A stretch of 34,862 nt of DNA from Pseudomonadota bacterium (GTDB lineage: Bacteria > Bdellovibrionota > FAC87 > UBA2466): contig JAYSWN010000075.1 in the NCBI GenBank assembly GCA_043718025.1, forward strand, positions 1 through 34,862. Reading direction: 5' to 3'. A program made the translations under genes and the position numbers. Shown piece by piece: positions 1 to 31,207 of this stretch. Every line of letters begins with the position of its first letter. Positions within the stretch are counted from its first letter, which is position 1. The notes under the pieces are model-generated. The model did no database searches and had not been told where the DNA came from. It was given only the letters and a program-made list of their open reading frames with translations.

Positions 1-834
1 TTTTTTCTGCTCTTCACCAAGGGTTAAAAGATCTCTAAACGGTACCTTACGCAATGCCGCTAAAGCATGTTCGTGAAGACGGCCCTCGCCGTAAATGGCG
101 AGGTTAAATAGTTCTGCGATGAGAGACTGATTCTCAGGCGGAACTAGGTCAAAAGACCGCCGGTACCATTCGCTTTCGCCTAGTCCACTTCCGGCCAGCG
201 GCCGAAAGACATTCGGAACTTCCAGAATATGTTTCGCCGCGTCTTTCACGTCGGGGTCGTGCCTTGAAATAAATCTTAGCCGTTCGAGATCACCAGGGGT
301 AAGCCCTTGTTCCAGTGCTCGTTGCAACGCAAGCAGTTTAACCGCTTTCGGGTCGGAGGGGCTAAACGGTTTCATCACGCTAGATTGCCCAAGCAGCTCA
401 TCCATTAGGGGATAGATCGTGGCCCAGTCGTAAACTTGAGAATCTGGCATGGTCGACAGAATTTGGGAGGCACGCTTTCGAACCGTGGGGTTCGGATCCC
501 AGTACGCCACGTCTTGCAAAAAAGACCGCCACTCAGGGGTGTTGCGGGCCACTTGCGCAAAAAGATTTTCTAATCTCTTTACGGCCGGGGCATCGATGGT
601 GAATCCCCGCGGGATTCCCGACCTATTTATCCGTGCGTAATTTAAATCTCGCCACTTATTCCAGCCAAGCGCGCCTAAACCCACCCCGATCTGCAAGGCC
701 GAAGACAGGAGCAAAAAACGGCAAAGACTCAATTTAGGACGGTTATCGCTCGGGGTTGGGCTTGTTTCGGCAACTATCGGGGTTGAAAGGAGAATAAGGA
801 CAAAGAAAAGACGCACGGCCGCTGTTACCATCAT
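1..834 (-). CDS. Exported HEAT-repeat-like helical protein (3' end runs off the window; not in the ORF track)
   Basis: Manual translation from ATG at 834 is open to position 1: MMVTAAVRLFFVLILLSTPIVA-ETSPTPSDNRPKLSLCRFLLL...; HEAT-like segments DPNPTVRKRASQIL and DPDVKDAAKHIL; AGGAG upstream. Confidence 0.7.
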   Translation of the reverse strand, partial: MMVTAAVRLFFVLILLSTPIVAETSPTPSDNRPKLSLCRFLLLSSALQIGVGLGALGWNKWRDLNYARINRSGIPRGFTIDAPAVKRLENLFAQVARNTPEWRSFLQDVAYWDPNPTVRKRASQILSTMPDSQVYDWATIYPLMDELLGQSSVMKPFSPSDPKAVKLLALQRALEQGLTPGDLERLRFISRHDPDVKDAAKHILEVPNVFRPLAGSGLGESEWYRRSFDLVPPENQSLIAELFNLAIYGEGRLHEHALAALRKVPFRDLLTLGEEQKK

Positions 835-893
835 GAGAAAATGGCTCCTAAGTAACCGTGGGATGCCTGTCTAACATCGTTGAATGAATTACG

Positions 894-1778
894 CTATTCT
901 CTTGGAAATAAGTCGACGGTACCGCGGTGCACGAATTGGTCGGGCCCTTTTTTTTCATAAAAATTGCCGACGAAGCTTCGGTTAGAGTCACGGAAAAATA
1001 ATTCAGCGTAATAGTACTCACTGATTTCAAGAATTAGCCAAGGGCTTCCGGGGCTGGATCGTCTTAACATCGATATTGAATTCTGCTCTTTTCTCCAGGC
1101 AATGCGTTTTGATCCGTTTAGAAGGATTACGGACGCCGTTCCTGAATAACGGTCGGCCCAAGGTTTTCCATTCAATTCAAAGTTTAGAGACCAAACCGCG
1201 CTGGGGTTGGTGAGTGACACGACCCCCAGGTACTTTCCGTTAAGACTCAAAAAGAGCGCATCATTTTTCTCGGGACGAAACGAATCATTTAAAGTTGAAC
1301 CAAAATCACCTTGACGGTGTTTCTTAAGAAACTCGTTAGCGCCGTCGCGCTCTAGCTCTGCGTTTTGTTGTAGCGCAGATGGGGGGCTGGCATGAACCGC
1401 CGGAGGAGGGGGTTTTGTCGGGGGGGCTTTTTCGGATTGGAGTATGGGTTGATCCTGCTGAGGCGTGGGCTCGGCCACTTCAGGTTCTCGCTCCTTTGGC
1501 GGAGTGTAGGGTGGTGGAGTTTCTGCTTTTTTAAACCGCTGCCCCAAATCGAGAAGAAATAGGGACATTATCTTTTCGAGTAACTCGTCGGCCTTTTTTA
1601 GCTTTTCGCTTTGCCCCTTTAGTTCACGGTACTCCTGAAGCTCGTGTTGCTCCAGATCAGCGAGTGATTGTTTAAGGTGCTGTAGCTCTTTTGAATCAGG
1701 TGAGGAGGCCTTCCCCATCCAATAGCCGCCGCCGAATACCACAATAACTAGGGCGGCGAACGCGGTTGAGCGGCTCAT
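894..1778 (-). CDS. Membrane-anchored hypothetical protein (N-terminal TM, coiled coil, Pro-rich linker, beta-rich C-terminal domain)
   Basis: 294 aa ORF; hydrophobic AFAALVIVVFGGG; heptad-like LQHLKQSLADLEQ; PPPYTPP and PPTKPPPP linker. Confidence 0.7.
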   Translation of the reverse strand: MSRSTAFAALVIVVFGGGYWMGKASSPDSKELQHLKQSLADLEQHELQEYRELKGQSEKLKKADELLEKIMSLFLLDLGQRFKKAETPPPYTPPKEREPEVAEPTPQQDQPILQSEKAPPTKPPPPAVHASPPSALQQNAELERDGANEFLKKHRQGDFGSTLNDSFRPEKNDALFLSLNGKYLGVVSLTNPSAVWSLNFELNGKPWADRYSGTASVILLNGSKRIAWRKEQNSISMLRRSSPGSPWLILEISEYYYAELFFRDSNRSFVGNFYEKKGPDQFVHRGTVDLFPRE

Positions 1779-1858
1779 ACCGCTTCTAGTATCTCGCTAA
1801 GGCTGAATACCGTGAGTAATTTATTTTAGTTGGTTAAGTTTTTTTAAGGCGAACGACG

Positions 1859-2146
1859 CTATTCGGTTTTCTTCTCTTCGCAAGTCTCTTGGCTGGCAAC
1901 CGTTCGCACCGGCTCGCCACTGGCGCAGAGCTTATATTTGTCGATTTTAGCCGCATCGCTATCGCCCGCTACCGAGCTCAAGCACCAGCCCAGATCGCAC
2001 TGATTTGCAGCTCCAGTATAGGACGTAAAACAGTCATCGGTGGTAACGATTGATGCGGCCAGTTTGGGAAGCGCGGCGGCATGAGCCACCGAAATTGAAC
2101 AAAAATAAAGAACGCCGGCGAGAACATACATACTGCGTGCGCGCAT
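1859..2146 (-). CDS. Small secreted Cys-rich protein
   Basis: Start moved to ATG at 2146 (AGGAG 7 nt upstream); signal peptide ending VAHA; five Cys in the mature part. Confidence 0.6.
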   Translation of the reverse strand: MRARSMYVLAGVLYFCSISVAHAAALPKLAASIVTTDDCFTSYTGAANQCDLGWCLSSVAGDSDAAKIDKYKLCASGEPVRTVASQETCEEKKTE

Positions 2147-2356
2147 CGAAGTACTCCTGATTGTGGGGAAATTTAATACTATGCTCCAATAGTGAAGGAA
2201 AATTGTGGGCTCGCGCACGCTTATTTGGCGCGTGCCAAGGGCGGAACTGACCAAGTTTTGTACACAAATTTACATTTTCGGTGAGCCTTTTTACCGAGAC
2301 TTACGCGTAAGGGGATGGGGGAAGCGTTGTGCTTTTGCCGTAACCAGGAGCTTGCG

Positions 2357-2929
2357 ATGAAACGGTTTTTATTTGGTCTGGGTTTGTTTTTAATATCCAA
2401 CGCGGGGCAGGCGGCCCTGCCCAACACGGCGTATTTTTATTATCCCGCCAGCGAAGGTTACTTTGTAAAAGACGTACAGACCGGGGTCTGGTCAGAGACC
2501 ATTCAAAACACCGAGGTTTTTTACTTTAAAGAAATAGGCAGCTCGGCCAACGCGGTTGACCTGTTTGATCCCACTCGTAATATGACGGTTAAGTTGGATA
2601 AAAACGGAGTGTTTTTAAAGGCCATGGGTGAAACCAAATTCACCTTTTACCGCTCGGGAAGCTGGGACAACCGCAGTCTTTTTTCTTACAACCTAGGGGC
2701 GGGACGGAGCGGCTATTATCAACTAATCGGTGGCAACATGTACCGCCACGTCACGAACGACAATGGGCAGAAATCCAGCAGCTACCTGCGAAACAATGGC
2801 CGGGATTACCAAACCGTAAACTTGCTCTATCCCAAAAATCAAACCAGTTACGCTATTCAGGGCAACGAAGTCTTTATCCAAACCAAACCTGGAAAATGGA
2901 GCAAGCTCTTTAGTGGCAATTGGCAGTAA
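2357..2929 (+). CDS. Secreted beta-rich protein with two internal repeats
   Basis: ATG at 2357 after AGGAG; MKRFLFGLGLFLISNAGQA signal; halves end in YRSGSWD and LFSGNWQ. Confidence 0.75.
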   Translation: MKRFLFGLGLFLISNAGQAALPNTAYFYYPASEGYFVKDVQTGVWSETIQNTEVFYFKEIGSSANAVDLFDPTRNMTVKLDKNGVFLKAMGETKFTFYRSGSWDNRSLFSYNLGAGRSGYYQLIGGNMYRHVTNDNGQKSSSYLRNNGRDYQTVNLLYPKNQTSYAIQGNEVFIQTKPGKWSKLFSGNWQ

Positions 2930-3004
2930 CGAGAAGGCATTTAAACCTATAATCTCAATTTGTGAGCATTTTCATTCGCCGGTTTTTTCGCTAGTCTCGC
3001 CGAC

Positions 3005-3553
3005 ATGCGCAATCGCGAGTACTACCGGCATCAGTTCGCCAAACAAATTATTTTAAGCAAGCACCAGCCCCCGGGTCCGTTTCCGCTGGTGATGATTCTT
3101 GACCAAATGAAGGCCACTTTTAACGTTGGCAAAATAATTCGCACGGCTAACGCTTTGGGAATTAGGGAAGTGCACTTGGTGGGGATGCCAATTTTTGACC
3201 TGCGTACTTGTCGTGGGGCACTTCAGCACACGCGCAGCCGATCGTTTGAGACTTTTAATGAGTCCTACGAAGTGCTTGCTGCTGAGGGGTATGAGTTTTT
3301 TGGCTTAGCGCCGCAGGGTGAAGAGACTTTAGGCGCTAAGCCCTTTCCGGAGAAGAGCGCCGTGATTGTGGGGCACGAAGAGTTTGGTTTAAGTTTTGAC
3401 CCGGCGGCTTACCCCAAAATAAAAAAGCTTCGCATTCCGCAGTTTGGTCAGGTGCAAAGTCTAAACGCCAGTATCGCCGCTTCAATGGCCTGCTTTGAGT
3501 ACGTCCGGCAACGCGATTTTACTCCGGCGGGCGGTGAGGGGAAAAGATCGTAA
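3005..3553 (+). CDS. TrmH/SpoU family RNA methyltransferase (SPOUT)
   Basis: Motifs LDQMKATFNVGKIIRTANALG, VIVGHEEFGL and IPQFGQVQSLNASIA. Confidence 0.92.
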   Translation: MRNREYYRHQFAKQIILSKHQPPGPFPLVMILDQMKATFNVGKIIRTANALGIREVHLVGMPIFDLRTCRGALQHTRSRSFETFNESYEVLAAEGYEFFGLAPQGEETLGAKPFPEKSAVIVGHEEFGLSFDPAAYPKIKKLRIPQFGQVQSLNASIAASMACFEYVRQRDFTPAGGEGKRS

Positions 3554-4321: not shown

Positions 4322-4427
4322 GGCGTAAACAAAGAATGGATAGCTGGCTTCGTCAAGTTTCGGGCCCTTGGTTTCGCCCCTTTTCAGCATATTGCGGCAA
4401 TTTTTGCCTCATGCTAAACGTCTCCCC

Positions 4428-5444: not shown

Positions 5445-5470
5445 GCGGTCTTTCGGTATCAACGCTACCC

Positions 5471-6373: not shown

Positions 6374-6451
6374 GGCCGTAAATTAGCGAAGAAAAGGGCG
6401 GGCGTATACTGTGGCGCGCACTTTCCTTTTGGTGGCCATCTTAGGTACGGT

Positions 6452-7360: not shown

Positions 7361-7373
7361 AAGTTTATCTGAT
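7359..7373. promoter_or_regulatory. Putative LysR recognition box (T-N11-A)
   Basis: ATAAGTTTATCTGAT imperfect dyad overlapping the LysR start, in the AT-rich divergent intergenic region. Confidence 0.55.
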
Positions 7374-7469
7374 TTAAACTGGTATTTTTTCTAATTTTTC
7401 TTATAGCGCGATACACGGCACAAATCTTCCTGAAACAATTTTTGCTTTGAAAAAAAGCAGGGGGAACAG

Positions 7470-9071: not shown

Positions 9072-9095
9072 GAACTTAAAGAGTTTAATCCGACC

Positions 9096-10000: not shown

Positions 10001-11071
10001 ATGAAGAATAATTTATTGGCCGCACTTATTGTATTCACCTTTCTTTTAGCGCCACCGCTTGAAGCCAACGGCAGAAGACCCGGAGGTGGTGGTGGCGGAG
10101 GACGGCCCGGCGGTGGATTTAAACCCAGCCGACCCCCGTCGCATGCCGCTCGCCCACCGCGCCCGGCCGCTGGCCCGAGGCCGGGAACGATGCCGGTGAA
10201 ACATCCGGGCGTAGGCCCCGGTGGAGCGCATAAACCGATTGGTGCAGGTGGTCCCGGTGCGATTAAACCGCGCCCCGGAACTATGCCCGTAAAACCTGGA
10301 GGCCATCCCGGAGGTCACCCTGCGGCAGGGGACGTTGGCAAATTTTTGGGCGGCCACCCGCCTGGACACTTTCCCGGAACTCCCGGGCATCGTCCTGGCT
10401 ACACTGGCGTGCATAAAGCGGAATATCACGTCAACATTAACAACCATTTTCATGCCCACCCGGTTTACGGTCATCCGTTTGGCGGACCGTGGCTAGCGCA
10501 TTACCAATGGCACTACAATAACTGGCCGGTATGGACGGTGGCGGCAACGGCCGTAGGGGTGGCGAGTTGGATTGGGGTTGGCAATTACGCCGGCTATGGT
10601 TCGGCTCAACCGGTTCCCTATTATCCTGTAGAGCAGGCGCCGGCCCAAGTGTACGAACAGCAGGTGAATGCTCCGGCTGAAGTGGTGGCGGCGGGCAAAG
10701 CCGCGCCGGTTGCCGAAGATGTGGAATGGCTCAACGTGGGAACGTTTGGCATGATTCCGTTTCAGCAAAAAGACTTGGCCTACGCCGTACAGCTAGCGAC
10801 CACCAAAGACGGAGTGGTTCGTGGCGTGCAATGGGACATGAAGGCAAGTACCGCGGTTGAAGTAGAAGGCTCGATTGAAAAGGATACGCTTCGCATTGCC
10901 TGGCAGGAGAAGGGTTCAGACTTGGCCCCTTACTTTGAAACCAATGTCGATCAACTGACGCAGAAAGAGTCGATGGTTAACGTCTACAATCCAAACACCA
11001 AGGCGTTAATTAGTTGGCAGCTCATTCAAATCGACGAGAAAGATTTGCCGCCTAAAAATCAAGAGAACTAA
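10001..11071 (+). CDS. Exported Gly/Pro/His-rich protein with conserved C-terminal domain (resembles PVC 'mu-protocadherin-like' proteins)
   Basis: GAGGAGG RBS; signal peptide; low-complexity G/P/H region; C-terminal WLNVGTFG..VQLATTKDGVVRG..GSIEKDTLRIAW..FETNVDQLT. Confidence 0.75.
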   Translation: MKNNLLAALIVFTFLLAPPLEANGRRPGGGGGGGRPGGGFKPSRPPSHAARPPRPAAGPRPGTMPVKHPGVGPGGAHKPIGAGGPGAIKPRPGTMPVKPGGHPGGHPAAGDVGKFLGGHPPGHFPGTPGHRPGYTGVHKAEYHVNINNHFHAHPVYGHPFGGPWLAHYQWHYNNWPVWTVAATAVGVASWIGVGNYAGYGSAQPVPYYPVEQAPAQVYEQQVNAPAEVVAAGKAAPVAEDVEWLNVGTFGMIPFQQKDLAYAVQLATTKDGVVRGVQWDMKASTAVEVEGSIEKDTLRIAWQEKGSDLAPYFETNVDQLTQKESMVNVYNPNTKALISWQLIQIDEKDLPPKNQEN

Positions 11072-11228: not shown

Positions 11229-12257
11229 ATGTTTAGGGTTCAGTTGTTTGTTTTGGCGTTTCTGGTCACCGTGGATTTGTTTGCCCGGACCAGCCCGCAA
11301 TGCGTGATTTATCTTTCAGACCTGGCTTACAAAAAATGGGCCGGTGGTAGCTACACTCTTAATGACGTCGAACGGGTATTTCATCGAAAGTTTAGAAATG
11401 ATCCCACTTTTGCGACCTGGATCTATGCGCAAAAAGAGCTTTCTGAAACGCCTGAGCAGTTGCTTACCCGTTTTGAAAACGAAAATCCAAAGTTAGACTC
11501 GATGGTTCCAGCCAGTTGGGATCTTACCAACTACGGAAAAAACTTGGCTCCGATCACGGATGACACCCGCCCGATGCACGGAATGCGATACTACCTTGAG
11601 CAGGCGCGAAGGTTTGTACCACTCTGGCGAACCATTCCCAAGCGATCTCCGTACGACGAAGCGGTGCTTTCTTTACGAAAAGGGGACACCGTTGAATTCG
11701 GGGCCCATAAATTTGTACTTGGTGATTTTTTAGGATCGGGAAATTCCACGTTTGTTTTTCGTCTTGAAGGCCAACCGGGTAAAGTGATTCGAATCCCTTT
11801 TTTGGTAGCGCCATTGAAGGGGGTGGGATTTCATCCCGAGATCTTCAATATGCTCACCCGTTGGCGGCAAAAAGATCCGAACATCCCGCAGGTAAAAATC
11901 TATCAAAGCGAATATGGCTTTAGCATCGTGTCAGAGGTGGATGGCAACGAAAATGGCAATGAGTTTTTAATCTCGGTTCGGCGAAAATACATGAACAATA
12001 TGTCACCAGACATGCAACGTTTTTTCACAGAGCTTTCGGAACAAAATCTTTCGTGGGCTACCGTCCACTGGTACTTGGCGGTTGAGAAACTAGCTCTTCA
12101 AGAAAATGACCTTGAGACATTCAATCGTTTACGCTTATTGAGAACACGGGCCAATCAGTATCAGAACAATGCTCTTCTGCTCCACATTTTGGAATACACT
12201 AGACAGTTTGTTTGGGATCGGACCAAGCGAGACTGGATTTTGGTCGATTGGGAATAG
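11229..12257 (+). CDS. Exported protein with truncated protein-kinase-like fold
   Basis: Signal peptide then QCVIYL; LGDFLGSGNSTFVFRL...KVIRIP Gly-loop/beta3; ends QFVW...WILVDWE. Confidence 0.7.
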   Translation: MFRVQLFVLAFLVTVDLFARTSPQCVIYLSDLAYKKWAGGSYTLNDVERVFHRKFRNDPTFATWIYAQKELSETPEQLLTRFENENPKLDSMVPASWDLTNYGKNLAPITDDTRPMHGMRYYLEQARRFVPLWRTIPKRSPYDEAVLSLRKGDTVEFGAHKFVLGDFLGSGNSTFVFRLEGQPGKVIRIPFLVAPLKGVGFHPEIFNMLTRWRQKDPNIPQVKIYQSEYGFSIVSEVDGNENGNEFLISVRRKYMNNMSPDMQRFFTELSEQNLSWATVHWYLAVEKLALQENDLETFNRLRLLRTRANQYQNNALLLHILEYTRQFVWDRTKRDWILVDWE

Positions 12258-16443: not shown

Positions 16444-18546
16444 TTAATTTTTATAGGCGGTGAAAATAGATTCCAAGAGTCGGCCGCAAAATCCTGGTTC
16501 GGCCGGGGCGTCGTGGGGTTCACTTAAGCGGGTGGCCGATCGCCTTGCCCTAAACCAAGTGCGCTTCGAGGCATTTAGTAGCTCGTTAACAACGTGCCCT
16601 CCATAATTTGCGGCCAATAGCGCAGAGACAATCTTTCCGCCCTCGACCACCGGTTCGCCAGCCGTGCCAAATGACATCGCGAAATCTTTCAACGGCTCAA
16701 ATACCACTCCCGGCAAAACGGCCACCGCCGCCCAAAAAGAGAGTGAAGCGGCGCCGATGACAGTAGCGAAGCTAAATTTCTGGGGAGTTCCGACTCCCCC
16801 CAATAATCCGGGTCGGCGAAACCCCTCATCGGTAAAATAGGAAGCATCGATCTGCCGTTGCCAAAATTCGCGGGTGCCGAAACCCCACTCTTTATTGGCC
16901 GAGGGCATTGGTTCGGCTCGTGCAAACATTTCGGCAATCGTGGAGCTTGGCCGCTGAGGACCGTAAGCACGGTAAAGGATGAGCTGCTCTTTGCGGTTTC
17001 TCGCCAGTTGATTGAATAGGCGCATCGCCAATTCGCTTCGGTAGGCCCGCAGCGGTTGCAATACGTGCCTCAATTGCGGAGGAAAATTGTGAAGGATCCA
17101 TTCAACTCGATCAATGAGTGCGATCGCTTCGATTGGCCTCGGCATGGTATCTAGCCAGTCATCGGTTTTCTTTCTAAGCCATCCGAAAAATTCATCCGTG
17201 TCGTAATGATTACGGAACAGGATGGGTAGCACCGGAATCAATCGGTCGAGAAAAGCAATTACGAATTCGCCTTCAGTCGTATCATTTAAAATCGCCTCGA
17301 CCGCGCGGAGGTCGTCCCGTTCGATGTTGTAGAGCGCTCTTTTCTGGGGATTGAGTAACACGTTGCGGGCGCTGGCAAGCAGAACCACTGCGTCGGCGTC
17401 ATTGGCAAAGGTGAGGAGAAGCAGGTTGGCTTCGAGCTCTACCACTTCGGGGGGGGAATTCTCGCTAATTCCGAGCCGCTCATACAAATCAAGGGCGTAG
17501 GGGTCGGGCCAGAGGGTACGACTCTCTTCCTCTTTCAATCGACCCGCTAAGCGATCTCGGTTCTCCGCGACGAAATGAAAAGCACGGCGGGTATCTTTTT
17601 TTCCTATAATTTGAAATGCGGAAGTCAAATTTCGTTGCGCCTGGGTATCGGTTTTATTTTGGGCAAAGGCATCAATATAAAGATCAAGAATTTGCCCCTG
17701 ATCCATATTCCAACTGGCGCCCAATCGCGCGTAGGGATCGTCACTAAATGGGTTGGCAATTAACTCAGACTGCGCTCCGGTTTCGTCTCTCTCCAACGCT
17801 GGCTTTGGCGCTATTGGTCCGTAGGCTCCGGGTTTCTCATCGTAGCGCGCCCGAAATGCGGCATCGGATAGTAGACTATAGGTATTGTGCAGTAAGGCGG
17901 CCGCAGCTTCGTTATCTTTGGCAAAGACCAGACTTCTACGGTGGCCCTCGGCCAAAATTTGTTCATTGGCATCCTCGGGAACATCTAAGCGTTCGTAGAG
18001 CGTTTGCCCCTCTAAAAGCGCCACGGCATCGGCTTTTGAAAGATCTCGAACCCTCATCCAAATGCGGACCTTTCCCTCGTCGGTTTTTTGTTCGAATAGA
18101 CCAACTGCCGCACAGACGGCCCGGGCCGAAAAATTGTCTGCGTCTACGACTAAGAACAGTTCAGAGCGACCGTCTGGGTTAAGACGAGCGATTAACTCTT
18201 GAATCAGCAGCGTGCCGACCTTTTGTCGCCGAAACTCGGGCGCCACGGCCAAGCGAATGATTCGAATATGGGTGGCCGTCATTTCGTAAATCACGTAGCC
18301 AAGCACCTGTCCGTTGCGTTCGACTACCCGGGAAAAAACGTTGGGTTTTTTCTGTTCGCGAGAAAAGTCGGCCGGCGACCAGGCTTTGGCGCTCGATAAC
18401 TTTTCAATATTAAGTACTTGGTCGCAATCTTGCGGTCCAAAGGGGCGAACTAGGTCTCCCTCGGCCAAAACGGGTGAGGGCAAAAGAAAGCAGAGCGCGA
18501 GAAAAAGAGGCAAAAAACGGTGGGCAAATGTGCGTCCACAACTCAA
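16444..18546 (-). CDS. Exported multidomain protein: RimI-like GNAT, three J-domain-like repeats, C-terminal hydrophobic segments
   Basis: Signal peptide ending PVLA; LAVAPEFRRQKVGTLL acetyl-CoA motif; LYERLDV..LLSDAAFRARYD, DPYARLGA..RRAFH, LYERLGI..LLNPQKRALYN. Confidence 0.82.
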   Translation of the reverse strand: MSCGRTFAHRFLPLFLALCFLLPSPVLAEGDLVRPFGPQDCDQVLNIEKLSSAKAWSPADFSREQKKPNVFSRVVERNGQVLGYVIYEMTATHIRIIRLAVAPEFRRQKVGTLLIQELIARLNPDGRSELFLVVDADNFSARAVCAAVGLFEQKTDEGKVRIWMRVRDLSKADAVALLEGQTLYERLDVPEDANEQILAEGHRRSLVFAKDNEAAAALLHNTYSLLSDAAFRARYDEKPGAYGPIAPKPALERDETGAQSELIANPFSDDPYARLGASWNMDQGQILDLYIDAFAQNKTDTQAQRNLTSAFQIIGKKDTRRAFHFVAENRDRLAGRLKEEESRTLWPDPYALDLYERLGISENSPPEVVELEANLLLLTFANDADAVVLLASARNVLLNPQKRALYNIERDDLRAVEAILNDTTEGEFVIAFLDRLIPVLPILFRNHYDTDEFFGWLRKKTDDWLDTMPRPIEAIALIDRVEWILHNFPPQLRHVLQPLRAYRSELAMRLFNQLARNRKEQLILYRAYGPQRPSSTIAEMFARAEPMPSANKEWGFGTREFWQRQIDASYFTDEGFRRPGLLGGVGTPQKFSFATVIGAASLSFWAAVAVLPGVVFEPLKDFAMSFGTAGEPVVEGGKIVSALLAANYGGHVVNELLNASKRTWFRARRSATRLSEPHDAPAEPGFCGRLLESIFTAYKN

Positions 18547-22467: not shown

Positions 22468-23001
22468 CTATTTTTGTACGGCCCACTTCTTGTCTTTGCC
22501 AAAAATGACGGTGCACGCCAAATCGCCGTTGATTTTGAAATGGCGTTTAAAAGATTTGATGCCTTGGCTTGGGTAGTAAGAAAGCTGGTACTTAAGCGAA
22601 AACGCCTCGTCGCGGTTGGTGCCAATGGCCAAGCTACCGATCATGATATTGGTCAGAGTTGGCGTGTGATAAACGCGGTGCATTAACATCAAAGGCACTT
22701 CGAGCTCGCTGGCGTCATTGCCGGAAGGCTTTCCGATGACAAATAGCGGCTCATTTTTCAAGTTTAGCCAGCCGCCCTTTTCTTCATCCTGCACGGCCGG
22801 TGCATTGCTAAAGCCCTTGATGCGCAATTTTGCCTTGAAGCCCGACCCTTTTTCTTCTGCATCCTGGGTGGTCGGCGACACTTCGCACTCCAGCGTTTCA
22901 TCGGCAACGCGAGCTAGCTCTAGCTGCATTGAAGTGTCGGCACCGAAGCCGGAATTGAAACAAAGTAAGCCAATTGAAAAAATAAATTTAATTGATCGCA
23001 T
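22468..23001 (-). CDS. Secreted hypothetical protein
   Basis: ATG at 23001 after GGGGGG; MRSIKFIFSIGLLCFNSGFGA signal; two mature Cys. Confidence 0.68.
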   Translation of the reverse strand: MRSIKFIFSIGLLCFNSGFGADTSMQLELARVADETLECEVSPTTQDAEEKGSGFKAKLRIKGFSNAPAVQDEEKGGWLNLKNEPLFVIGKPSGNDASELEVPLMLMHRVYHTPTLTNIMIGSLAIGTNRDEAFSLKYQLSYYPSQGIKSFKRHFKINGDLACTVIFGKDKKWAVQK

Positions 23002-23120: not shown

Positions 23121-25091
23121 CTACCGCTTAAAAGCGGCGGGGCCGATTTCTAAAACGGCCGCATTAGCAAAGCATTCAAAAGCCAAATCCCCAATTAGCG
23201 GGTCTGAAGAGTCGCGGGCTTGTTGAAGAAGGCCTTCTCCCGCCTGAATTAGCATTTTTATCGATTGGGCCTGACGCGCATAATTGGCAACGGCGCGCCA
23301 ATTCTTAAGCTTCGCATTCGCCACGGCGAGGCGAAGCGCATTCCTTTTTTCCTCATTCTCAGGTTTCCATTTTTCAAGCACCGCGGGACGAAAGATTTCA
23401 TCGATCGCCGCCGATCTGAATTCATCGGCCACCGTGGGGTGGAAGGGTAGTAAATCTTCCTGCTCGTTTAACGCAACTCCCCTAAATAGTACGGCTTCGG
23501 CTTTGGCCGCCGTGTATTTAATTTCAGCTCGATTCAAGCGCTCAATATAGCGCCGATTTAACCCCTCATCCCTCATCTCCCGCAACATAGGCAACAGTTT
23601 AGAGTCGTCCCTTGCAACGCTCAGCCGGCGATTGCCAGGTAGGCCACTTTCAGTGAGTAGATCTATAACCTGCACCGCCGCTGACCAATTGCCATCAAGC
23701 CGCGCCGCCGCCGCGTTGAGTTCCCAAGGCACGTAGTAGTACGCATCGGCGTTGTGGTGCTTACCAGTGGTTCGAAAGCTAAAAATCGTATCGCCAAAAT
23801 GGCGCAGCCGCGCCACATCGCGGATAGAGACCAAGGCATCTACAACGTGATCGCTTACGGGAATAAACTCTTCTTCGTGCTGCAGAATTTTGTCGGAAAG
23901 GGCTTGGATCCGTTTCACAATCCCATCGTCTTCACAAACGGTTAAAAGCTTTGGTGTGTTTCCATACGAATGGGCGTAAGCGACTGTATCTCCAGTCGCC
24001 CTGAGCGCATCCAGCGCGAGCGCGTAATAATCAATCTCGTCTCGTAGTCCCCAGTCATCGACGTCGCGTTTTCGCTGTTCGATAAAGCGGGCGCTTGATA
24101 TTTCGTCAGCAAAAGTTTGCAGCAGCCGGCGGGCATCCCCTCTAAGGTCAGCGCCTTGGATTAACCCCAAACTTCGCACCCCTTCGCTGAAGAGGGGGCG
24201 AATCGTGCTAAACCGCAAATCGTTAGAAACTTCTTTCACCGCCATTCTCACCGAAGCCTCGGCAAATTGAGCCATGGCGATATTAAACAGAGCTACGTCA
24301 TGCTTGAGAAGATAGGCGAGATCGGTTGCAGTAGACCAGTCTCGCATTGTGATTAGGTAGCTAAGCAGTTGCGTGGCTTCCGAAACCATGTCTGCCGCGA
24401 GGGCCAGGCGGGCCACTTCGAGTGCTTTGTATCCCCAGATTTCGAACTCATTTTCGTCATCAAGCCGAAGGTTTCGCATCTGGAACATCGCCGTCACGTT
24501 GCCCGCCATGGCTTCTCTGATTTCGTGATCTTCCGCGTCTAGCGGTGGATTTACCATTGGGATATGTAAAATGTTTTCGCCGATGTTCATAAAGGGAATA
24601 AACGGCTTTATCCACTCGGCGCTCGCCGTGGGCTGTCCAATCAGATCTCCAGCTCTCACCTTTGGTGCCACCTCGCCTAAGAACCACGGTGGCATTTTCG
24701 GTTGAGGCCCCCAGCCAGGAACAATTCGCGTGGCAATGTATTTTTTGACCAAAGGGCGAATCAGTTTCTTTGAGTCCTTTAGTGGCACCCCAAGGAGCAG
24801 CAGGCGATAAAAAGACTGCAACGCTCGGCCTGAGTCCTTGTAGATACCGAGTTTTTGGTCGCTATATAGTCCGGCCGTGGCGGCGGCAATCAGTCGACCC
24901 CTCATTGTGCGAGTGGCGAGGCTAAACACGGTGGGCAGCTCCCTTGCCGAGTAAAGGTTTAGCGTTTTTTGATCAACGCCGAAGCGTAAAATCAACTGGG
25001 CGCACGTCACTTTATCGAGCCCGGGAGTCACGCCAGAGGCAAAAAGGGAAGGGATGAAGACCAGAAGTAGGATCGAATAAAGGGTAGGCAC
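23121..25091 (-). CDS. Large exported alpha-helical hypothetical protein
   Basis: 656 aa; GGAG RBS; signal peptide ending SLFA followed by VTCAQLI. Confidence 0.75.
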   Translation of the reverse strand: MPTLYSILLLVFIPSLFASGVTPGLDKVTCAQLILRFGVDQKTLNLYSARELPTVFSLATRTMRGRLIAAATAGLYSDQKLGIYKDSGRALQSFYRLLLLGVPLKDSKKLIRPLVKKYIATRIVPGWGPQPKMPPWFLGEVAPKVRAGDLIGQPTASAEWIKPFIPFMNIGENILHIPMVNPPLDAEDHEIREAMAGNVTAMFQMRNLRLDDENEFEIWGYKALEVARLALAADMVSEATQLLSYLITMRDWSTATDLAYLLKHDVALFNIAMAQFAEASVRMAVKEVSNDLRFSTIRPLFSEGVRSLGLIQGADLRGDARRLLQTFADEISSARFIEQRKRDVDDWGLRDEIDYYALALDALRATGDTVAYAHSYGNTPKLLTVCEDDGIVKRIQALSDKILQHEEEFIPVSDHVVDALVSIRDVARLRHFGDTIFSFRTTGKHHNADAYYYVPWELNAAAARLDGNWSAAVQVIDLLTESGLPGNRRLSVARDDSKLLPMLREMRDEGLNRRYIERLNRAEIKYTAAKAEAVLFRGVALNEQEDLLPFHPTVADEFRSAAIDEIFRPAVLEKWKPENEEKRNALRLAVANAKLKNWRAVANYARQAQSIKMLIQAGEGLLQQARDSSDPLIGDLAFECFANAAVLEIGPAAFKR

Positions 25092-25367
25092 TCAGTCTCC
25101 ATGACCCCGCGCATTAGAGCGGGTCATTTCATAATCTTCTGCACAATACAATTCGTAAGTGGATGAGCGGCGTGCCCGAGCGCCAGTTTGGAAACCCCGT
25201 GGATACTGGTTTAGGGAAAGTGCGGACAAAGCGCCCTGACCCCAAGCGCTTGGTTTATCCAATAAAAGCTGCTTTCGAAGCCGTTTTTTTAGTTAATGTG
25301 ATGAATTTATTTTCTTTTTACCGGTTAAATAAATAAGCTGTCGTAAACCTAAAGATAAGAGTGCGAA

Positions 25368-27746
25368 ATGCCCCCAAAATCCAAATTTTTTCGACGGCTA
25401 CTGGTTGATTTTTCCGCCCCCATCACTTTAGTTTTCTTGGCGTTAGCGCTATGGGGGGCCTACGTCAGCCGCAATATTGAGTTAAAACTCTCTTTGACCG
25501 ACCTGCTCCCGCAAAATCACCCCGGGGTTATCAAGTTCAATAAACTCACCGAGATCGTGGGCGGCGTGGGGTACATGGAGATTGTGCTCCATGCGGAAGA
25601 TGGAAAGTCGCATCTCGCCATCGCCCCGTCCCTTATCCAAAAGTTTAAGGCCTCGCCACTGGTGCGAAGCGCTTTTTTTGACCGCGAAGAACACTTTTTT
25701 CTCACCCGGGCTCTCTACTATGTCGACTTACCGAAGCTAAAAGAAATTCAGAAAAACGCGGACCGCGGAGTGGTGAACGCGAAACGGCGCATGTTTGATA
25801 TTGGCCTTTGGGACGATGAGCCGCAGGCCGAGGCCGCCCCGATCATTGATGCCGATTTAAAAAACTTTGCCGAGCGCGTGGCCACGAGTCGGCCGCAGCT
25901 CACGTCGAAAGATGGAAAAGATCTGCTGTTGTTACTCAAACCCAACTTCGACTCCCTCGACATGGAGCGCAGTAAAGAGCTCGTAACGCTGACCGAAACG
26001 ATTCTAAACGAAAACATTAAACCGCCAGTAAGTTACCGTTTGGCGGGTCGTTATTACAGTAAGGTGAAAGACGCCGAGATCATCGATCACGATATCGTTG
26101 TGCTGGGCCTGCTTTCTAATTTGGTAATGGCGATCATTCTCCTCTTTTATTTTCGCAGCGTGCGCGCCGTTATATCTATCTTTATTCCGGTGGTTTTGGG
26201 TTTAGGCGTGGCGAGCTTGCTCACTTGGGCCGTCATTGGTCACATCAATCTGATTACGGGTTTTCTGGTTGGAATTATTTCTGGAGTGGGTTCCGACTAC
26301 GGCATTCACATGCTTTGGCGATTGCGCCTCGAACAGCGTGAACCCTCGGGGCCCGACCCCGATCCGTTGTGGCGCACGCTACAAACTAGCGGCTGGGCAA
26401 ACTTTGTTACGATTATTTCTACGGTGCTTTGCTTTGGCTTTATGTGTGGAAGTTCTTTTAAGGTCTTTTCTGAATTTGGCTTTATCAGCGCCGTCGGCCT
26501 CTCGGCCATTCTGTTCTCAAAACTGGGGTCATTTTATTGGACCTCGAAGTTGCTAAATCTTGAAGAGATCATGGCTAAAGGAAAATACCCATTTGGTAAC
26601 CGATCGCTGTGGCTACTTTCTGGTCAGCGCCCTTTCCTCTTGTCGCTCGCCGTTTCGGCTCTGTTAATCGCGTTTTCATCAAAGGTGGGTTTTGAATTCG
26701 ATTTCGAGAAGATGATGCAGCACTCTGCCGAGGTGGGTAAAACCAATCACCTCATCGATGAGATTTATAATCGTTCGTCTACCCCCTCTGCTTTTGCTAC
26801 CGACAGTAAAGAGCGAGCGCTCGAAGTTGAGAAGTACATAAACAAGAAATACATGCCGGAAACGGTACAAAGCATTATTGGCGGGGCCAGCATTCTTCCT
26901 GATCAGCAGCAGGAGAAGGCGGAAGTTCTCGCCAAAATGAACAAAACGTTGCTCCCGATCAAAGACAAATTGCTCACCGAGGCCCTGGGGGTGCCGGGAA
27001 AATCGATTCGTTCTTGGGTGAACGCCACCCCGTTTACCTTTAGCGACGTGCCCATTTATATTCAGGAGGCTTTGCGTGGTACCAAGCAGGCCGGTTACCT
27101 AATCTACGTTTACCCGGTAGAGCATCTCGACAATGCTAAATCGGTGGCCAAATTTGCCGCCTTTATTAAAGACGTGGAGACCCGTTTTCCGGACCTGATC
27201 AGCGGCTCCGACGTTGGCATTTTTTCTGACATTCTAGATTTGGTGAAAAGAGACGGCACCATTATCTTGCTGCTTATTCTCGTATTCGTCGGGATTTTTA
27301 TGTGGATAAATCTCCGTAGCTTTACCGAGGCGGTACTCTGTTACGTGCCGTTTATCTTGTCGTTACCAATTGGCATTGGCCTGATGGCGTTGTTCAAGGT
27401 GGAGTTCAATATATTCAATACGGCCATTCTGCCGGCGTTGGTGGCGGTAGGCATTGAGATTCCAATTCAACTCATGCAGCGGGCTCGCGAAGTGAAATCC
27501 GGTTTCAAAGCGGTAAACGATGTTGCGGTGAGCCTTCAGCTTTCATTATTGACCACCTTTATCGGCTTCGGCACTCTGGTCTTCACCCGCGCCGGAGTTT
27601 TAAAAAGCCTGGGCTGGATCTCGTTGCTTTCAATTGCCGCTATTTGGTTCGTGGGTATTTTTGTGCAGCCTGCAATTCTAGAGCGCTTTTACCAGCGTTC
27701 CCGCAAAAAAGCGTTGCTGACGACAAATGAAGAGGTCACCGTTTAA
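25368..27746 (+). CDS. MMPL/RND family transporter
   Basis: 792 aa; duplicated 1+5 TM topology; LTDLLPQNHP; YFRSVR; GVGSDYGIH; FKVFSEFG. Confidence 0.92.
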   Translation: MPPKSKFFRRLLVDFSAPITLVFLALALWGAYVSRNIELKLSLTDLLPQNHPGVIKFNKLTEIVGGVGYMEIVLHAEDGKSHLAIAPSLIQKFKASPLVRSAFFDREEHFFLTRALYYVDLPKLKEIQKNADRGVVNAKRRMFDIGLWDDEPQAEAAPIIDADLKNFAERVATSRPQLTSKDGKDLLLLLKPNFDSLDMERSKELVTLTETILNENIKPPVSYRLAGRYYSKVKDAEIIDHDIVVLGLLSNLVMAIILLFYFRSVRAVISIFIPVVLGLGVASLLTWAVIGHINLITGFLVGIISGVGSDYGIHMLWRLRLEQREPSGPDPDPLWRTLQTSGWANFVTIISTVLCFGFMCGSSFKVFSEFGFISAVGLSAILFSKLGSFYWTSKLLNLEEIMAKGKYPFGNRSLWLLSGQRPFLLSLAVSALLIAFSSKVGFEFDFEKMMQHSAEVGKTNHLIDEIYNRSSTPSAFATDSKERALEVEKYINKKYMPETVQSIIGGASILPDQQQEKAEVLAKMNKTLLPIKDKLLTEALGVPGKSIRSWVNATPFTFSDVPIYIQEALRGTKQAGYLIYVYPVEHLDNAKSVAKFAAFIKDVETRFPDLISGSDVGIFSDILDLVKRDGTIILLLILVFVGIFMWINLRSFTEAVLCYVPFILSLPIGIGLMALFKVEFNIFNTAILPALVAVGIEIPIQLMQRAREVKSGFKAVNDVAVSLQLSLLTTFIGFGTLVFTRAGVLKSLGWISLLSIAAIWFVGIFVQPAILERFYQRSRKKALLTTNEEVTV

Positions 27747-28555
27747 AGGCCAGCGTTTCCCGCCGGCCCAACTCGAATACGAATCACTGGCGTCTTTGAA
27801 TATCTAGTCGTTCCTTCGCGGATAAAAAATCCACGTTGGCGCAGGGTGGCTACCCATTGTGCGTAGGCCGCTGACTGCGCAAAGTTTCTATCGAGCTGAG
27901 AAAAGATCTCGCCGTCGGGTGCGAGCCAACGAGCGTAACGTTTTATTGTAGCGTGCAGTACCGCGCCATAAGCCACAACGTCGGTTTCGGCGGAACCGGC
28001 GGGCCCCAGTAGCCCCCCGATGGGGCGAATGACGATGAGATCAAATTGGTCAACGCCCCTTGTTTTCATATCTGCGCTAACCGCCGTCGCGGTGGCCCTT
28101 CTATAAACATCTCCGCTAACTTGCCCGCGCTTGATGCGTGGGTCAGGCGGAGCGTCGGCAAATTGTTTTTTAGTGAGCCGCACCCCGGTGATGCTGTCGA
28201 CATCTTGGGGGTTGAGAAATACGCCGGAGCCAGCCAGCTCAAGAACGTGCCTGCGCGTTGGCCCGCGTTGGCGTAACAACTCTGCGAAAGTTCCTTCCGG
28301 CAGAACCGAAGCAAAGTAGTCGTTATAGTCGGGGGTGCTCATGCCGTCGGCGCCTACGATTTCGTTATGGCCCATGTCCCCCAATGACAGCAGGGAGTGC
28401 ACGAATTCGGTTTCGTAACTCAGGAACTTGCGCATGGCCGGCAACAAAGATTTACAATCCGCGGCCGCGGCCGGCGGGGTAAAAAAGCAGAGTAGAAGAT
28501 AGAGTAAAGATGAAAGGGGAAGAATGACAAAGAGAAGAGAAATGGTAGTTTTCAT
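27743..28555 (-). CDS. Exported SAM-methyltransferase-fold protein
   Basis: ATG at 28555; signal peptide ending AAAA then DCKSLL; HVLELAGSG (motif I-like), SGDV, FDLIV, RWLAPDGEIF. Confidence 0.7.
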   Translation of the reverse strand: MKTTISLLFVILPLSSLLYLLLCFFTPPAAAADCKSLLPAMRKFLSYETEFVHSLLSLGDMGHNEIVGADGMSTPDYNDYFASVLPEGTFAELLRQRGPTRRHVLELAGSGVFLNPQDVDSITGVRLTKKQFADAPPDPRIKRGQVSGDVYRRATATAVSADMKTRGVDQFDLIVIRPIGGLLGPAGSAETDVVAYGAVLHATIKRYARWLAPDGEIFSQLDRNFAQSAAYAQWVATLRQRGFFIREGTTRYSKTPVIRIRVGPAGNAGL

Positions 28556-28725
28556 GGAGCGCACCCTAGCAAAAGAGAAAAATGGAGTGTGTCGTAAACC
28601 ACTCAACTGAGGCTCAAACTGGAAACCAATTGGTTAACGATCTTAAGGTTATCAGGGGCTGACACCCATCTCCGGATTCGCATGGGGCTAGACGCGGTTC
28701 ATGAAATCCGCAATGAGGGAGAAGA

Positions 28726-29277
28726 GTGACAACGTCGAGTGCGTGGCAAGTTTTAATGCTTTTTCTGATTCCGATCGGCGGGGGCATTCCGGCCGGGGTG
28801 TTGCGCGCGCGCAGCCTTACTATCGACTGGCCCGGAATGTTGGTTTTGTATTTCATATCCGACGTGATTTTGGCCTGCGCCTTTGAGCCGATGATGAAGC
28901 TGATCCTCTTTTTGGGAAAAGACTCGCCCTTTTTCGCCCGCTTTCGGGAGGCAATGAATAGGTCGATAAAAATGACCACCCCCCATTACGGCAGCGCGAT
29001 GGGGCCGCTTGCGCTTATTCTGGTGGCCTTCGGGGTTGACCCCATGACCGGTCGAGCGGTGTCTAAGGCGGCCGGCCACGGTTTTATCACCGGTTGGGCG
29101 CTGGCGATTGCGGGCGACATGCTCTACTTCACCGTATTGATGATATCCACCCTCTGGCTCAATAACATTCTCGGCGATGGAACCTGGACCACGATCATCA
29201 TCATTGGACTGATGATTGTCGTTCCCCCGCTTATCAGGCGCCTGCGTGGGCGCAAGCCGCCATCCGCTGGGCCATAA
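28726..29277 (+). CDS. Integral membrane protein (weak resemblance to small multi-drug export/COG2426-like proteins)
   Basis: Several TM segments; LFLIPIGGGIPAGV; FGVDPMTG; GAGGGAG RBS. Confidence 0.7.
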   Translation: MTTSSAWQVLMLFLIPIGGGIPAGVLRARSLTIDWPGMLVLYFISDVILACAFEPMMKLILFLGKDSPFFARFREAMNRSIKMTTPHYGSAMGPLALILVAFGVDPMTGRAVSKAAGHGFITGWALAIAGDMLYFTVLMISTLWLNNILGDGTWTTIIIIGLMIVVPPLIRRLRGRKPPSAGP

Positions 29278-29341
29278 TAGCCTTCATCTTATTGTCAGAA
29301 TGTAGTACATCGGTTTTGTTTCTAAACCGGAGGTAGTTGCG

Positions 29342-29605
29342 GTGAATAGAAAACTATTTTGTTCCCTGGCGCTGATTTCTCTATTGGCGGGTTGTGGCGG
29401 CAATTGTGGCAACCAGTTTATCTCTGATTATAATTCAGCTTTTGCCTATCCCGGCACACGCGCCAGACAGTGCGAGCTGGTCCGTCAATTTAAAGCCAAA
29501 TGGGCAGGTACGGTCTGTTCTGCTCAAATCGGCGATATTCAAAAGAGCAAAACTACGATCAATGCCAATAACGTCGCAGACAACGTTTTGGCCGGATGTA
29601 ATTAG
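29342..29605 (+). CDS. Small Cys-containing lipoprotein
   Basis: GGAGG RBS; lipobox LAG-C; four further Cys. Confidence 0.78.
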   Translation: MNRKLFCSLALISLLAGCGGNCGNQFISDYNSAFAYPGTRARQCELVRQFKAKWAGTVCSAQIGDIQKSKTTINANNVADNVLAGCN

Positions 29606-29833
29606 AGAATAGCCGGCTATAGAAAGCGCTAATTTCTTTTCTCTATAACGTTTGCAAAAAGGCGATGAGGTCGTGTTTTTGATCCTGCGTATAGCGCTCT
29701 TTGCCGTCGTCTAAAAAAATACCTTCGTCGTGTCCGCTGGGCCTTAGACCGGCCTGCAGTCCGTCAAAAGCCGTCTCCTCATTTCCATCGTGGGCGCAAT
29801 TACGACGCGCTTTTCGCCGTGTTACAATTTGGC

Positions 29834-31207
29834 ATGGTGTCTAAACTCGCCCCTCATTGGCCGATTTACATAGCGTGCTTGCTGAGTTCTCCCCTGGTCT
29901 TTGCCGCTAATCGGTGTGACCAAACTCTGACGGAAATAGCCGCCCATCAGGTGCTGCGTACTGATCGAGATGCCGCGGCGATCATTCAAAAATACAAGCG
30001 GACGGAAGGGCTTGCGCCCGCACTTTCCGATTTTAGCGAGGGTGTCATTAGCGCCGACGGCAGCACGGCCGTGATTATTTCTCAAATGGGCTTTCGAATT
30101 TGGGACGTAAAGGCAAAACACTGGGTGGGCGAGCTGATTAGGACTGACGTTTCTTCTGAATTGGCTTTGGCCAACGATGGCTCACAAGTGGTCGGAATGA
30201 TCCGCAAAAAAGGGGTGACGGTATGGGATACGCGCAGCGGCAGAGTGATCTCCCAGCACGCGGTAGCCGAAATCGGTGACCCGCACAAATTCTCTCCCGA
30301 TGGAAAAACCCTACTCCTGGTAAAAGCGCGAGAAGACAAATCGCCGAAACCAGGAGACCAAGAGGGCCCTCCGCTTACCAGCGATGAAATTGTGGCGGCC
30401 TATTATAAGAAGATCTCATACGAGGAGTCTGAACTGAATTTGATTGATTCTGGAACTGGAAAAATTATCCGACGATTGCGCGACCATAAAAGCAAATTTC
30501 GCAACGCTCATTTTTCTCATGACGGAAAATGGATTGCTACAACCAGTGACGATGGGTTGATTCGCTGTGAAAACACTACCACCGGCGAAGTAAAAGTGGC
30601 CTACGGAACCGGAGAAAAAACCGACACGGTTGAGTTTTCTCCAGAAGGAAATTCTCTGTTTGTGGTTCCCCGCACGGGCAACGCCTTGGTGCTTCCGATC
30701 GACGGCAGTAACAAACCCACGCCAGTCCCTGCCATTTGGGGCGAGGTTTACGATGGAGCTTTTTCGCCGGGTTCAAAAAATTTATTAGCGCTGCTGACTG
30801 ACAGTGGGTTCCACCTAGTCGATGGGAAATCTTTTAAAGAAAAAATCTCGATTCGGGGTCTTGAAGAGGGATTAAGTAGGCTTCAGTTTTCTTCGGACGG
30901 TAATTACTTCTTACTTTCTCTAGACGATGGAAAGCGTTTTGTCGTATGCGATGTGGCAACGGCGCGCCCGTTGTACGAACTTAAAGGGGCATCGGCTGAC
31001 GAGGGTTTTAAAGTTTCGCACGCTGAAAAAGACGGGGTCATTGGCGTTTCGTTTTCCAATGACGCATTAAAAATTTGGGAAACTCAAAAAATTACTGCCA
31101 CCACTTCACCCGACGCAAAGTCTTTTGCCACGGCTGACGGGGCGTACCGCTTCTACCGCGAAAGCCAACCCGATGGCTCGGTTACCATTAAAGTAAAACT
31201 AAGATGA
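29834..31207 (+). CDS. Exported WD40/beta-propeller protein
   Basis: Repeats RIWD, TVWD, FSPDGK, FSHDGKWIATTSDDG, FSPEGN, FSSDGN, LKIWE; signal peptide then NRCDQTL. Confidence 0.88.
   Translation: MVSKLAPHWPIYIACLLSSPLVFAANRCDQTLTEIAAHQVLRTDRDAAAIIQKYKRTEGLAPALSDFSEGVISADGSTAVIISQMGFRIWDVKAKHWVGELIRTDVSSELALANDGSQVVGMIRKKGVTVWDTRSGRVISQHAVAEIGDPHKFSPDGKTLLLVKAREDKSPKPGDQEGPPLTSDEIVAAYYKKISYEESELNLIDSGTGKIIRRLRDHKSKFRNAHFSHDGKWIATTSDDGLIRCENTTTGEVKVAYGTGEKTDTVEFSPEGNSLFVVPRTGNALVLPIDGSNKPTPVPAIWGEVYDGAFSPGSKNLLALLTDSGFHLVDGKSFKEKISIRGLEEGLSRLQFSSDGNYFLLSLDDGKRFVVCDVATARPLYELKGASADEGFKVSHAEKDGVIGVSFSNDALKIWETQKITATTSPDAKSFATADGAYRFYRESQPDGSVTIKVKLR

Follow-up and report, generated by a model that had tools for sequence, protein, structure and literature searches.

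A candidate cysteine-centred sorting tag at either end of predicted exported proteins in a Bdellovibrionota genome

The contig JAYSWN010000075.1 (34,862 nucleotides, analysed in full and referred to here as the window) belongs to the assembly GCA_043718025.1 of a bacterium placed by GTDB in the Bdellovibrionota (FAC87; UBA2466). Its initial annotation pointed to seven unrelated open reading frames (ORFs; named here by the position of their first base) that combine a signal peptide with a nearby C-x-x-x-[L/I] motif. We find that this motif is real, is located at the N- or C-terminus and marks a larger set of proteins than the seven ORFs. It consists of a lone Cys followed by a hydrophobic residue at +4 (often also at +3 and +7), occurs at either end of approximately 50–70 unrelated predicted-exported proteins, and very probably represents a functional sorting or attachment signal. 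That it acts as a second sorting signal, routing cofactor-dependent enzymes from the periplasm into prey, is a proposition we regard as evenly balanced.

Enrichment of the motif at protein termini

Genes and signal peptides of the source genome (G000; 4.14 Mb, 234 contigs, 92.4% complete; the window is its contig C207) were called by custom scripts, signal peptides being recognized by a heuristic hydropathy rule. The rule was applied in a loose form (946 or 1292 proteins, depending on the test) and in a stricter form blind to Cys (768 proteins), and lipobox proteins were removed before tags were counted. The core of the tag was defined as C-x-x-x-L near either end of a protein with a signal peptide.

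Among the 946 signal-peptide proteins, Leu occupies position +4 relative to 37/133 Cys residues found in mature positions 1–10, as compared with 119/1458 internal Cys residues and 13/172 in signal-less controls. It is the sole residue enriched at any offset tested (146/801 terminal versus 185/2321 internal Cys, p = 1e-14). In exported proteins with a single mature Cys the pattern is present in 29/61 cases in the N-terminal zone and 15/38 in the C-terminal zone, versus 8/102 internally.

Sequence shuffling and non-exported proteins, which the initial annotation had named as the checks to make, both yielded strong support for positional enrichment. The N-terminal zone pattern is found in 97/1292 proteins, versus 45.4 ± 6.0 in 500 shuffles (maximum 64), and the C-terminal zone pattern in 52 proteins of the loose set, versus 31.3 ± 5.1 (maximum 49). 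Under the strict rule 91/768 proteins match, versus 42.5 ± 6.0 in 300 shuffles, and no effect is seen in signal-less proteins (p = 0.68). The excess over chance amounts to about 50 proteins under the strict rule and about 70 under the loose one; since shuffled sets reach approximately half of the observed counts, about half of all matches are due to chance.

The signal peptides of tagged proteins resemble those of untagged exported ones, with a positive n-region, a median uncharged run of 17 residues and A-x-A sites in 57% versus 63%. One protein carries both tags, 61 carry an N-terminal tag only, 27 a C-terminal tag only and 629 neither. Mutual exclusion of the two ends is thus not significant in G000 (p = 0.5) and rests on the kinase family described below; an intramolecular N-to-C disulfide is therefore not the rule.

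Exported kinase family of ORF 11229

ORF 11229 encodes a divergent member of a family of exported atypical kinases, with the C-lobe truncated after the DWE motif. Three paralogues in G000 and three relatives of this protein all carry a C-terminal Cys-helix. The counts below refer to the best 150 of 841 representatives matched by a family profile, which contained some tails and may favour tailed matches, though most matches stop before the tail. A signal segment is present in 125/150 of these kinases, and 110/150 have a single mature Cys. In 135/150 a Cys lies within the last 45 residues, versus about 5% expected from the Cys frequency of the core. The tag Cys is invariant in an alignment of 110 rows and is followed by a hydrophobic residue at +4 in 76%.

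Of the 15 kinases without a C-terminal Cys, nine have an N-terminal one (p = 1.8e-5, a value overstated by kinship), and several of the others appear to be fragmentary. On a quick tree comprising 76 of 151 rows, the N-terminal state requires five changes, at least three of them forced; six N-terminal members form one clade, and P0125 is a possible fragment. The initial annotation had placed the tag mainly at the N-terminus; it is as often of use at the C-terminus, and the two ends switch within a single family.

No Pfam or NCBIfam family covers the tagged kinases. RIO kinases rank first in a fold search, Ser/Thr kinases in the PDB are matched at E 1.4e-5, and the nearest named Atlas clusters are YrbL, OspG and T7 kinase (0.91–0.92, taken as leads). 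The Gly loop, the catalytic and Mg-binding Asp residues and the two lobes of a kinase-like fold are all present; both Asp residues are invariant in the 110 rows, with Glu at the first Asp position of the alignment in ORF 11229 itself. A structure model of one G000 paralogue (predicted local distance difference test, pLDDT, 92.5) shows a RIO-like kinase, in which the tag forms a separate low-confidence helix at residues 241–250. The single-sequence prediction for ORF 11229 has a pLDDT of 38, too low for use.

The family is present in 77/401 genomes of the phylum, and weak matches to it lie inside 3,700-residue frames in three genomes. Named carriers among 30 kinase clusters are Halobacteriovorax sp. 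GB3 (C-terminal tag), a Bdellovibrio metagenome-assembled genome (MAG) and a Pseudobdellovibrionaceae MAG (both N-terminal tags). Inspection of 30 kinase loci by eye revealed no common neighbour gene.

Cargo domains and signal-less paralogues

The periplasm contains little ATP, S-adenosylmethionine (SAM) or acyl-CoA. To characterize the cargo, 40 regions of G000 chosen for their tag content were scanned against Pfam, covering 65 tagged and 107 untagged candidates. The 18 matches among tagged proteins include two SF2 helicases, an acyl-adenylating enzyme, three ATP-grasp proteins, a pyruvate kinase, a dehydratase, two methyltransferases, a P-loop protein and an M3 peptidase. The loose signal rule had mis-called 16 housekeeping proteins in the untagged set; the strict rule removed 14 of them together with four tagged cytoplasmic-type proteins. 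What remained was eight cytoplasmic-type, three extracytoplasmic and three ambiguous proteins among the tagged, versus 2, 19 and 5 among the untagged, the labels being assigned by the analyst. The association with cytoplasmic-type domains foreseen in the initial annotation is thus observed (p = 5.6e-4, or 1.2e-3 if ambiguous proteins are counted as non-cytoplasmic).

Tagged pyruvate kinase, ATP-grasp, M3 and Clp-like proteins of G000 align to signal-less paralogues only past the tag; residue 47 of the tagged pyruvate kinase, for instance, corresponds to residue 8 of its paralogue. Within the ATP-grasp group of G000 one paralogue has the tag at the N-terminal end and another at the C-terminal end. 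Of 120 ATP-grasp homologues, nine pass the signal rule, two of them mis-called fusions. In each of the remaining seven, all single-domain, a terminal extension (six N-terminal, one C-terminal) contains a Cys, five times with the hydrophobic pattern, whereas 101/111 signal-less homologues are devoid of the tag pattern. A structural role of the Cys, one of the refutations offered in the initial annotation, is not borne out in the kinase, ATP-grasp, pyruvate kinase and M3 families, with the GNAT protein of the window as an exception.

Several individual loci deserve separate mention. The second pyruvate kinase (L021:104-1720, minus strand), with signal peptide and tag, exists alongside a housekeeping copy and might serve to generate ATP beyond the cytoplasm of the producer; 40 relatives yielded no close match to it. 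The sole Dcp-like M3 peptidase of G000 at E ≤ 1e-120 (L015:4667-6766, minus strand) also has a signal peptide and a tag. A search with it matched 101/201 genomes, a figure that counts sequence matches irrespective of tags; most orthologues in the phylum occupy shorter frames (about 670–700 residues), suggesting that export was gained in the G000 lineage. Three signal-peptide Clp-like ATPases (C36:1451-6118, C29:21523-23646 and C35:17533-19884) comprise two with a C-terminal C-x-x-x-L and one with an N-terminal C-T-E-R-F variant.

Tagged proteins of the window

All seven N-terminal motifs were located, the first base of the Cys codon being at 723, 11301, 16293, 18426, 25004, 28456 and 29915, and an additional C-terminal motif has its Cys codon starting at 16488. 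The features are as follows; scores in bits come from a matrix built from kinase C-terminal tags.

1..834 (minus): tagged ORF with a signal peptide, 278 residues visible, running off the contig; Cys38 (723-709); no family; weak matrix score, HEAT label at E 0.19
11229..12257 (plus): divergent member of the exported atypical (RIO/PKL-fold) kinase family with an N-terminal tag; profile match E 2.5e-12
11301..11315 (plus): tag C-V-I-Y-L, sole Cys of the ORF 11229 protein; 2.3 bits
15580..16383 (minus): tagged orphan of 267 residues, Cys31 (16293-16279); possible DUF1826/2OG-Fe(II)-like fold; homologue search returned itself alone
16444..18546 (minus): signal peptide, RimI-like GNAT domain and weak J-like segments (profile match); N-terminal Cys41 within the GNAT domain
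16474..16488 (minus): C-terminal tag C-G-R-L-L of the GNAT protein (Cys687), 14 residues before the end; 4.4 bits
22468..23043 (minus): possible further member (by motif) with a C-terminal C-T-V-I-F at 22515; another Cys is a potential pairing partner; uncertain
23121..25091 (minus): tagged ORF of 656 residues, Cys30 (25004-24990, C-A-Q-L-I); no family; 3.3 bits
27743..28555 (minus): tagged ORF of 270 residues, Cys34 (28456-28442) as sole mature Cys; methyltransferase label unconfirmed; homologue P0153
29834..31207 (plus): tagged WD40 propeller; Cys28 (29915-29929) precedes the propeller; 4.1 bits

As annotated, the Cys is the sole mature one in ORFs 11229 and 28555 and in the visible part of ORF 834; the other tagged ORFs have two or three. 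Scores are good for ORFs 11229, 25091 and 29834. The highest-scoring Cys of the window is Cys687 of the GNAT protein. Its Cys41 is probably a domain residue, as the RimI match begins at residue 40 and includes it. Judged from the sequences, the N-terminal GNAT tag is thus probably false while the other six stand, and the GNAT protein is left with its C-terminal tag. The poor score of ORF 28555 is offset by a 56% homologue (P0153), which retains both signal peptide and Cys; a 32% homologue (P0154) has neither.

The domain labels given to these proteins fared unevenly: kinase, GNAT and WD40 were recovered and DnaJ only weakly (E 0.002), whereas HEAT (E 0.19), methyltransferase (no match) and 2OG-Fe(II) stayed unconfirmed, the last with an Atlas lead to DUF1826 (0.91) and no hidden Markov model match at E ≤ 1. 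Exported proteins with ordinary folds were said to be untagged; this is true of the outer-membrane and HAD proteins, which have no Cys at all. The lipase-like protein is ambiguous as an untagged control, because one of its 10 mature Cys residues lies near the C-end and scores 2.1 bits. The window is the most tag-rich contig of G000 (5 tags by the strict rule versus 0.7 expected).

Comparison with known sorting signals

The tag fits no defined sorting signal and is undescribed in the literature searched. Lipoproteins carrying a lipobox are processed by Lgt, LspA and Lnt, with the Cys as residue +1 of the mature protein. The tag is similar in placing a Cys shortly after a signal peptide; however, this Cys is not at +1, and the tag can also be C-terminal. 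The lipobox pattern [LVI][ASTVI][GAS] precedes the Cys in 0/59 N-terminal tags, which partly follows from the prior lipobox filter, and 33/59 have a charged residue at −3 to −1, unlike a lipobox. The seven window tags likewise fail as lipoboxes by inspection, in line with the initial annotation. Cys is fourth from the C-terminus, as in CaaX prenylation, in 0/135 tails. A twin-arginine motif is found in 2/87 tagged versus 8/381 untagged proteins, so the tagged set does not consist of Tat substrates.

Portable effector signals are familiar from type IV, VI and IX secretion (XVIPCD, Hcp/VgrG adaptors and T9SS CTD, respectively). They share with the tag the use of one signal on diverse, fast-changing and mostly solitary cargo genes, but the tag is only about 8 residues long, Cys-centred and independent of the protein end. 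The minimal effector kinases (OspG, T7 kinase, RIO fold) differ from the tagged kinases, which add a Sec signal peptide, the tag and a strand-3 Arg.

MYXO-CTERM and related Cys-containing C-terminal signals, associated with myxosortase in the available parts of their descriptions (PMC11980579; 10.1101/2023.06.07.544157), likewise mark dozens of proteins with signal peptides across the genome in a predatory lineage, with a proposed type II route; like them, the tag places a Cys near the C-terminus, as in 135/150 kinases. Unlike in these signals, the tag Cys is followed by a membrane segment in 0/135 and 0/28 tails (median lengths 12 and 16 residues), there is no Arg cluster after a membrane helix, the tag can be N-terminal, and the cargo is cytoplasmic-type enzymes rather than surface adhesins. 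No NCBIfam CTERM model, or any other NCBIfam model, matches the tag in 55 proteins, and Bdellovibrio is not mentioned in the accessible portion of the MYXO-CTERM preprint by Haft (10.1101/2023.06.07.544157).

A mechanistic parallel is the disulfide tether of AB toxins such as the typhoid toxin, for which the available text of PMC6469816 describes Sec-exported CdtB bound to PltA via one Cys and freed on reduction, and reports that addition of the Cys is enough to couple a related enzyme to the delivery subunit. The combination of a signal peptide with an unpaired terminal Cys is shared (110/150 kinases have one mature Cys). Here, however, the Cys marks dozens of unrelated cargoes and may occupy the N- or the C-terminal end. 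Neighbours, paralogue families and odd-Cys candidates (relatives partly covered) yielded neither a B subunit nor a carrier, and the disulfide is a proposal.

Searches of the literature, including for a Bdellovibrio CxxxL motif, cysteine motif or sorting signal, returned no description of the tag, subscription papers and supplements aside. It is likewise not described in the parts available of PMC12419801, PMC12622784, PMC10225642, PMC2797640, PMC6469816, 10.1101/2022.06.13.496000, 10.1101/2023.06.07.544157 and PMC11980579.

Proposed pathway and alternative explanations

A lone Cys that is kept in nearly Cys-free proteins, lies outside the fold and changes ends suggests one shared reader forming a covalent link. 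We tentatively propose an undescribed two-step pathway in Bdellovibrionota, whereby Sec export would be followed by covalent loading, by means of the either-end Cys-helix tag, onto a shared carrier; this would bring enzymes such as kinases, helicases, Clp unfoldases, ligases and pyruvate kinase to the cytoplasm of the prey, which they would reprogram and harvest. After predicted cleavage by signal peptidase I, a short amphipathic helix, predicted to begin at the tag Cys, would dock on one common carrier in the oxidizing periplasm and the Cys would become covalently linked, with a disulfide as the likeliest bond. For exit of the complex, the type II system, Tad pili and vesicles are candidates. 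Once in the reducing cytoplasm of the prey, the enzyme would be freed, and ATP, SAM and acyl donors present there would activate it; the producer's periplasm, being without these cofactors, would stand in for immunity proteins.

Delivery to prey through a covalent carrier has, in our estimation, not quite even prospects. The link itself may well be a disulfide, at slightly less than even odds, and is rather less likely to be an acylation. A disulfide to a carrier is preferred because it explains both periplasmic loading and release in a reducing cytoplasm, as with CdtB on PltA. An operon-like upstream gene is found for 11/82 tagged versus 104/372 other genes; such mostly solitary genes, with no shared immunity-like neighbour, fit a cargo that is inert until it meets its cofactors. 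The idea of a second sorting signal, as put forward in the initial annotation, is thus supported in that the tag is portable, lies outside the cargo domain, was gained with the signal peptide and accompanies cytoplasmic-type cargo, while delivery to prey and the Cys chemistry are inferred.

As candidate machinery, G000 encodes DsbB, five secretins, a full type II (gsp) operon with secretin on contig C41 (gene identities read from sequence by the analyst), and type IVa and Tad genes. SctV/FlhA (PF00771), TssC (PF05943) and VirB4 (PF03135) were not found in this 92.4% complete genome, which thus shows no type III, IV or VI core machine; a Sec signal and a complete gsp operon, as expected for type II export, are both present. 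G000 probably has no flagellum, which is unusual for the model predators of the phylum.

The main rival is a non-canonical lipidation, in which the amphipathic helix and an acyl chain anchor the cargo to the outer membrane or vesicles and the enzymes act on the predator surface or on leaking prey contents, with no crossing into an intact cytoplasm. The single Cys, the amphipathic helix and the basic residues upstream all suit a membrane anchor; the available part of PMC11980579 predicts lipidation for other Cys signals, and vesicles of about 25 nm fill the bdelloplast in that of 10.1101/2022.06.13.496000. One match to the CPBP/Rce1-like proteases that are cognate to MYXO-CTERM-type signals (PF02517) exists in G000, although the family also matches in 11/14 controls. 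We nevertheless consider lipidation unlikely: none of the 59 N-terminal tags has a lipobox, in neither set of tails is the Cys followed by a membrane helix, and the tag Cys lies 2–45 residues from either end, a variability that Lgt-type chemistry would not allow.

The covalent-carrier pathway also competes with self-association, in which disulfide homodimers or mixed complexes keep the enzymes inactive or bundled in the periplasm with no dedicated route. A leucine helix that begins with a Cys could indeed be stapled to another helix, but one pattern on unrelated folds, with switching of ends, is more easily reached through one common reader than through many dimers, and the source of cofactors is left unexplained, making this account improbable. 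More improbable still is that the signal segments are uncleaved membrane anchors or products of mis-called starts, leaving the enzymes in the producer's cytoplasm with the Cys as a local modification site. Signal peptides were called by one hydropathy rule, which also mis-called housekeeping proteins; however, the signal segments match those of untagged exported proteins, occur in 125/150 kinases and are absent from the housekeeping paralogues of four tagged enzymes. As for chance, or a structural role of the Cys in each domain, the background half of the matches and, probably, Cys41 of the GNAT protein are of this kind, but for the set as a whole the explanation is refuted and has next to no credibility left: observed counts exceed every shuffle, signal-less proteins show no effect, and the Cys, located beyond the domain boundaries, switches ends.

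Several observations weigh against the proposed pathway. The motif is degenerate, and the tags of ORFs 834, 16383 and 28555 score low on the kinase-derived matrix (−0.3, −2.8 and −4.8 bits). Pfam matches are lacking for 47/65 tagged proteins, 3/18 of the matches are extracytoplasmic folds (NHL, pectinacetylesterase and GDSL), and the cargo bias depends on the analyst's own labels. The strand-3 Lys is replaced by Arg in 109/110 kinase rows and some tagged ATP enzymes are without canonical motifs, which makes enzymatic activity putative in both cases. A predatory lifestyle of G000 is presumed, and no FlhA was found in the 92.4% complete genome. Neither a carrier nor a modifying enzyme emerged from neighbours, paralogue families and odd-Cys candidates, and the tagged genes revealed no promoter in common. 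A comparison of 177 odd-Cys exported proteins with fetched stretches of relatives (partial coverage) gave nothing convincing as a partner, and paralogue clustering in G000 revealed no carrier family. The best of 2690 gapped words in a promoter scan (p = 2.4e-5) does not go beyond multiple testing, and there is no sigma-54 or sigma-28 excess upstream of tagged genes.

To this must be added the relatives, sampled as 400 kb of G036, 240 kb of G007, 400 kb of G165, 400 kb of G401 (Oligoflexus tunisiensis) and 365 kb of G229. Observed versus expected counts reveal no enrichment in G036 (3 vs. 4.8), G007 (3 vs. 3.0), G165 (6 vs. 9.6), G401 (4 vs. 6.3) or G229 (8 vs. 8.7). Single-Cys tags number 0–1.5 per 100 exported proteins in these five, versus 6.1 in G000, and those found in G036 and G165 (two) are kinases deliberately included in the samples. 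A phylum-wide bait, the six-copy lineage-specific GFDDND family, yielded 80 loci, mostly titled Bdellovibrionota, Bdellovibrionales, Bacteriovoracaceae or Oligoflexales; pooled, they show no enrichment either (27 vs. 22.8 ± 4.4), with clear single tagged examples in Bdellovibrionales and Bacteriovoracaceae records. The tag is widespread, its repertoire is expanded in some lineages only and, given the absence of enrichment in these samples, a large repertoire is evident for G000 only.

A sorting signal functioning at either protein end would be unusual. Used as a handle, the tag predicts effectors among orphan proteins, and the cultured genus Halobacteriovorax carries a tagged kinase. The available part of PMC10225642 lists the access of Bdellovibrio to prey cytoplasmic contents as an open question, and that of PMC12622784 calls Bdellovibrio secretion largely unexplored.

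Other exported families and window genes

The GFDDND family (L033:13370-14095 and five paralogues) is exported, has no name and no Pfam or NCBIfam match, and is recognizable by its PxGFDDND and LLHVRS motifs; besides its six copies in G000, it occurs in 215 stretches across the collection, mostly with Bdellovibrionota titles. In the window, positions 10001-11071 (plus strand) encode an exported protein that is rich in Gly, Pro and His, contains a hydrophobic stretch in its interior and has no Pfam match. A stand-alone SET-domain protein without a signal peptide (33053-33511, plus strand) overlaps the stop of the exported ORF 31635-33056. Elsewhere in G000, C232:24433-29614 holds four tandem exported paralogues with a common C-terminal Y-C-Y-F motif.

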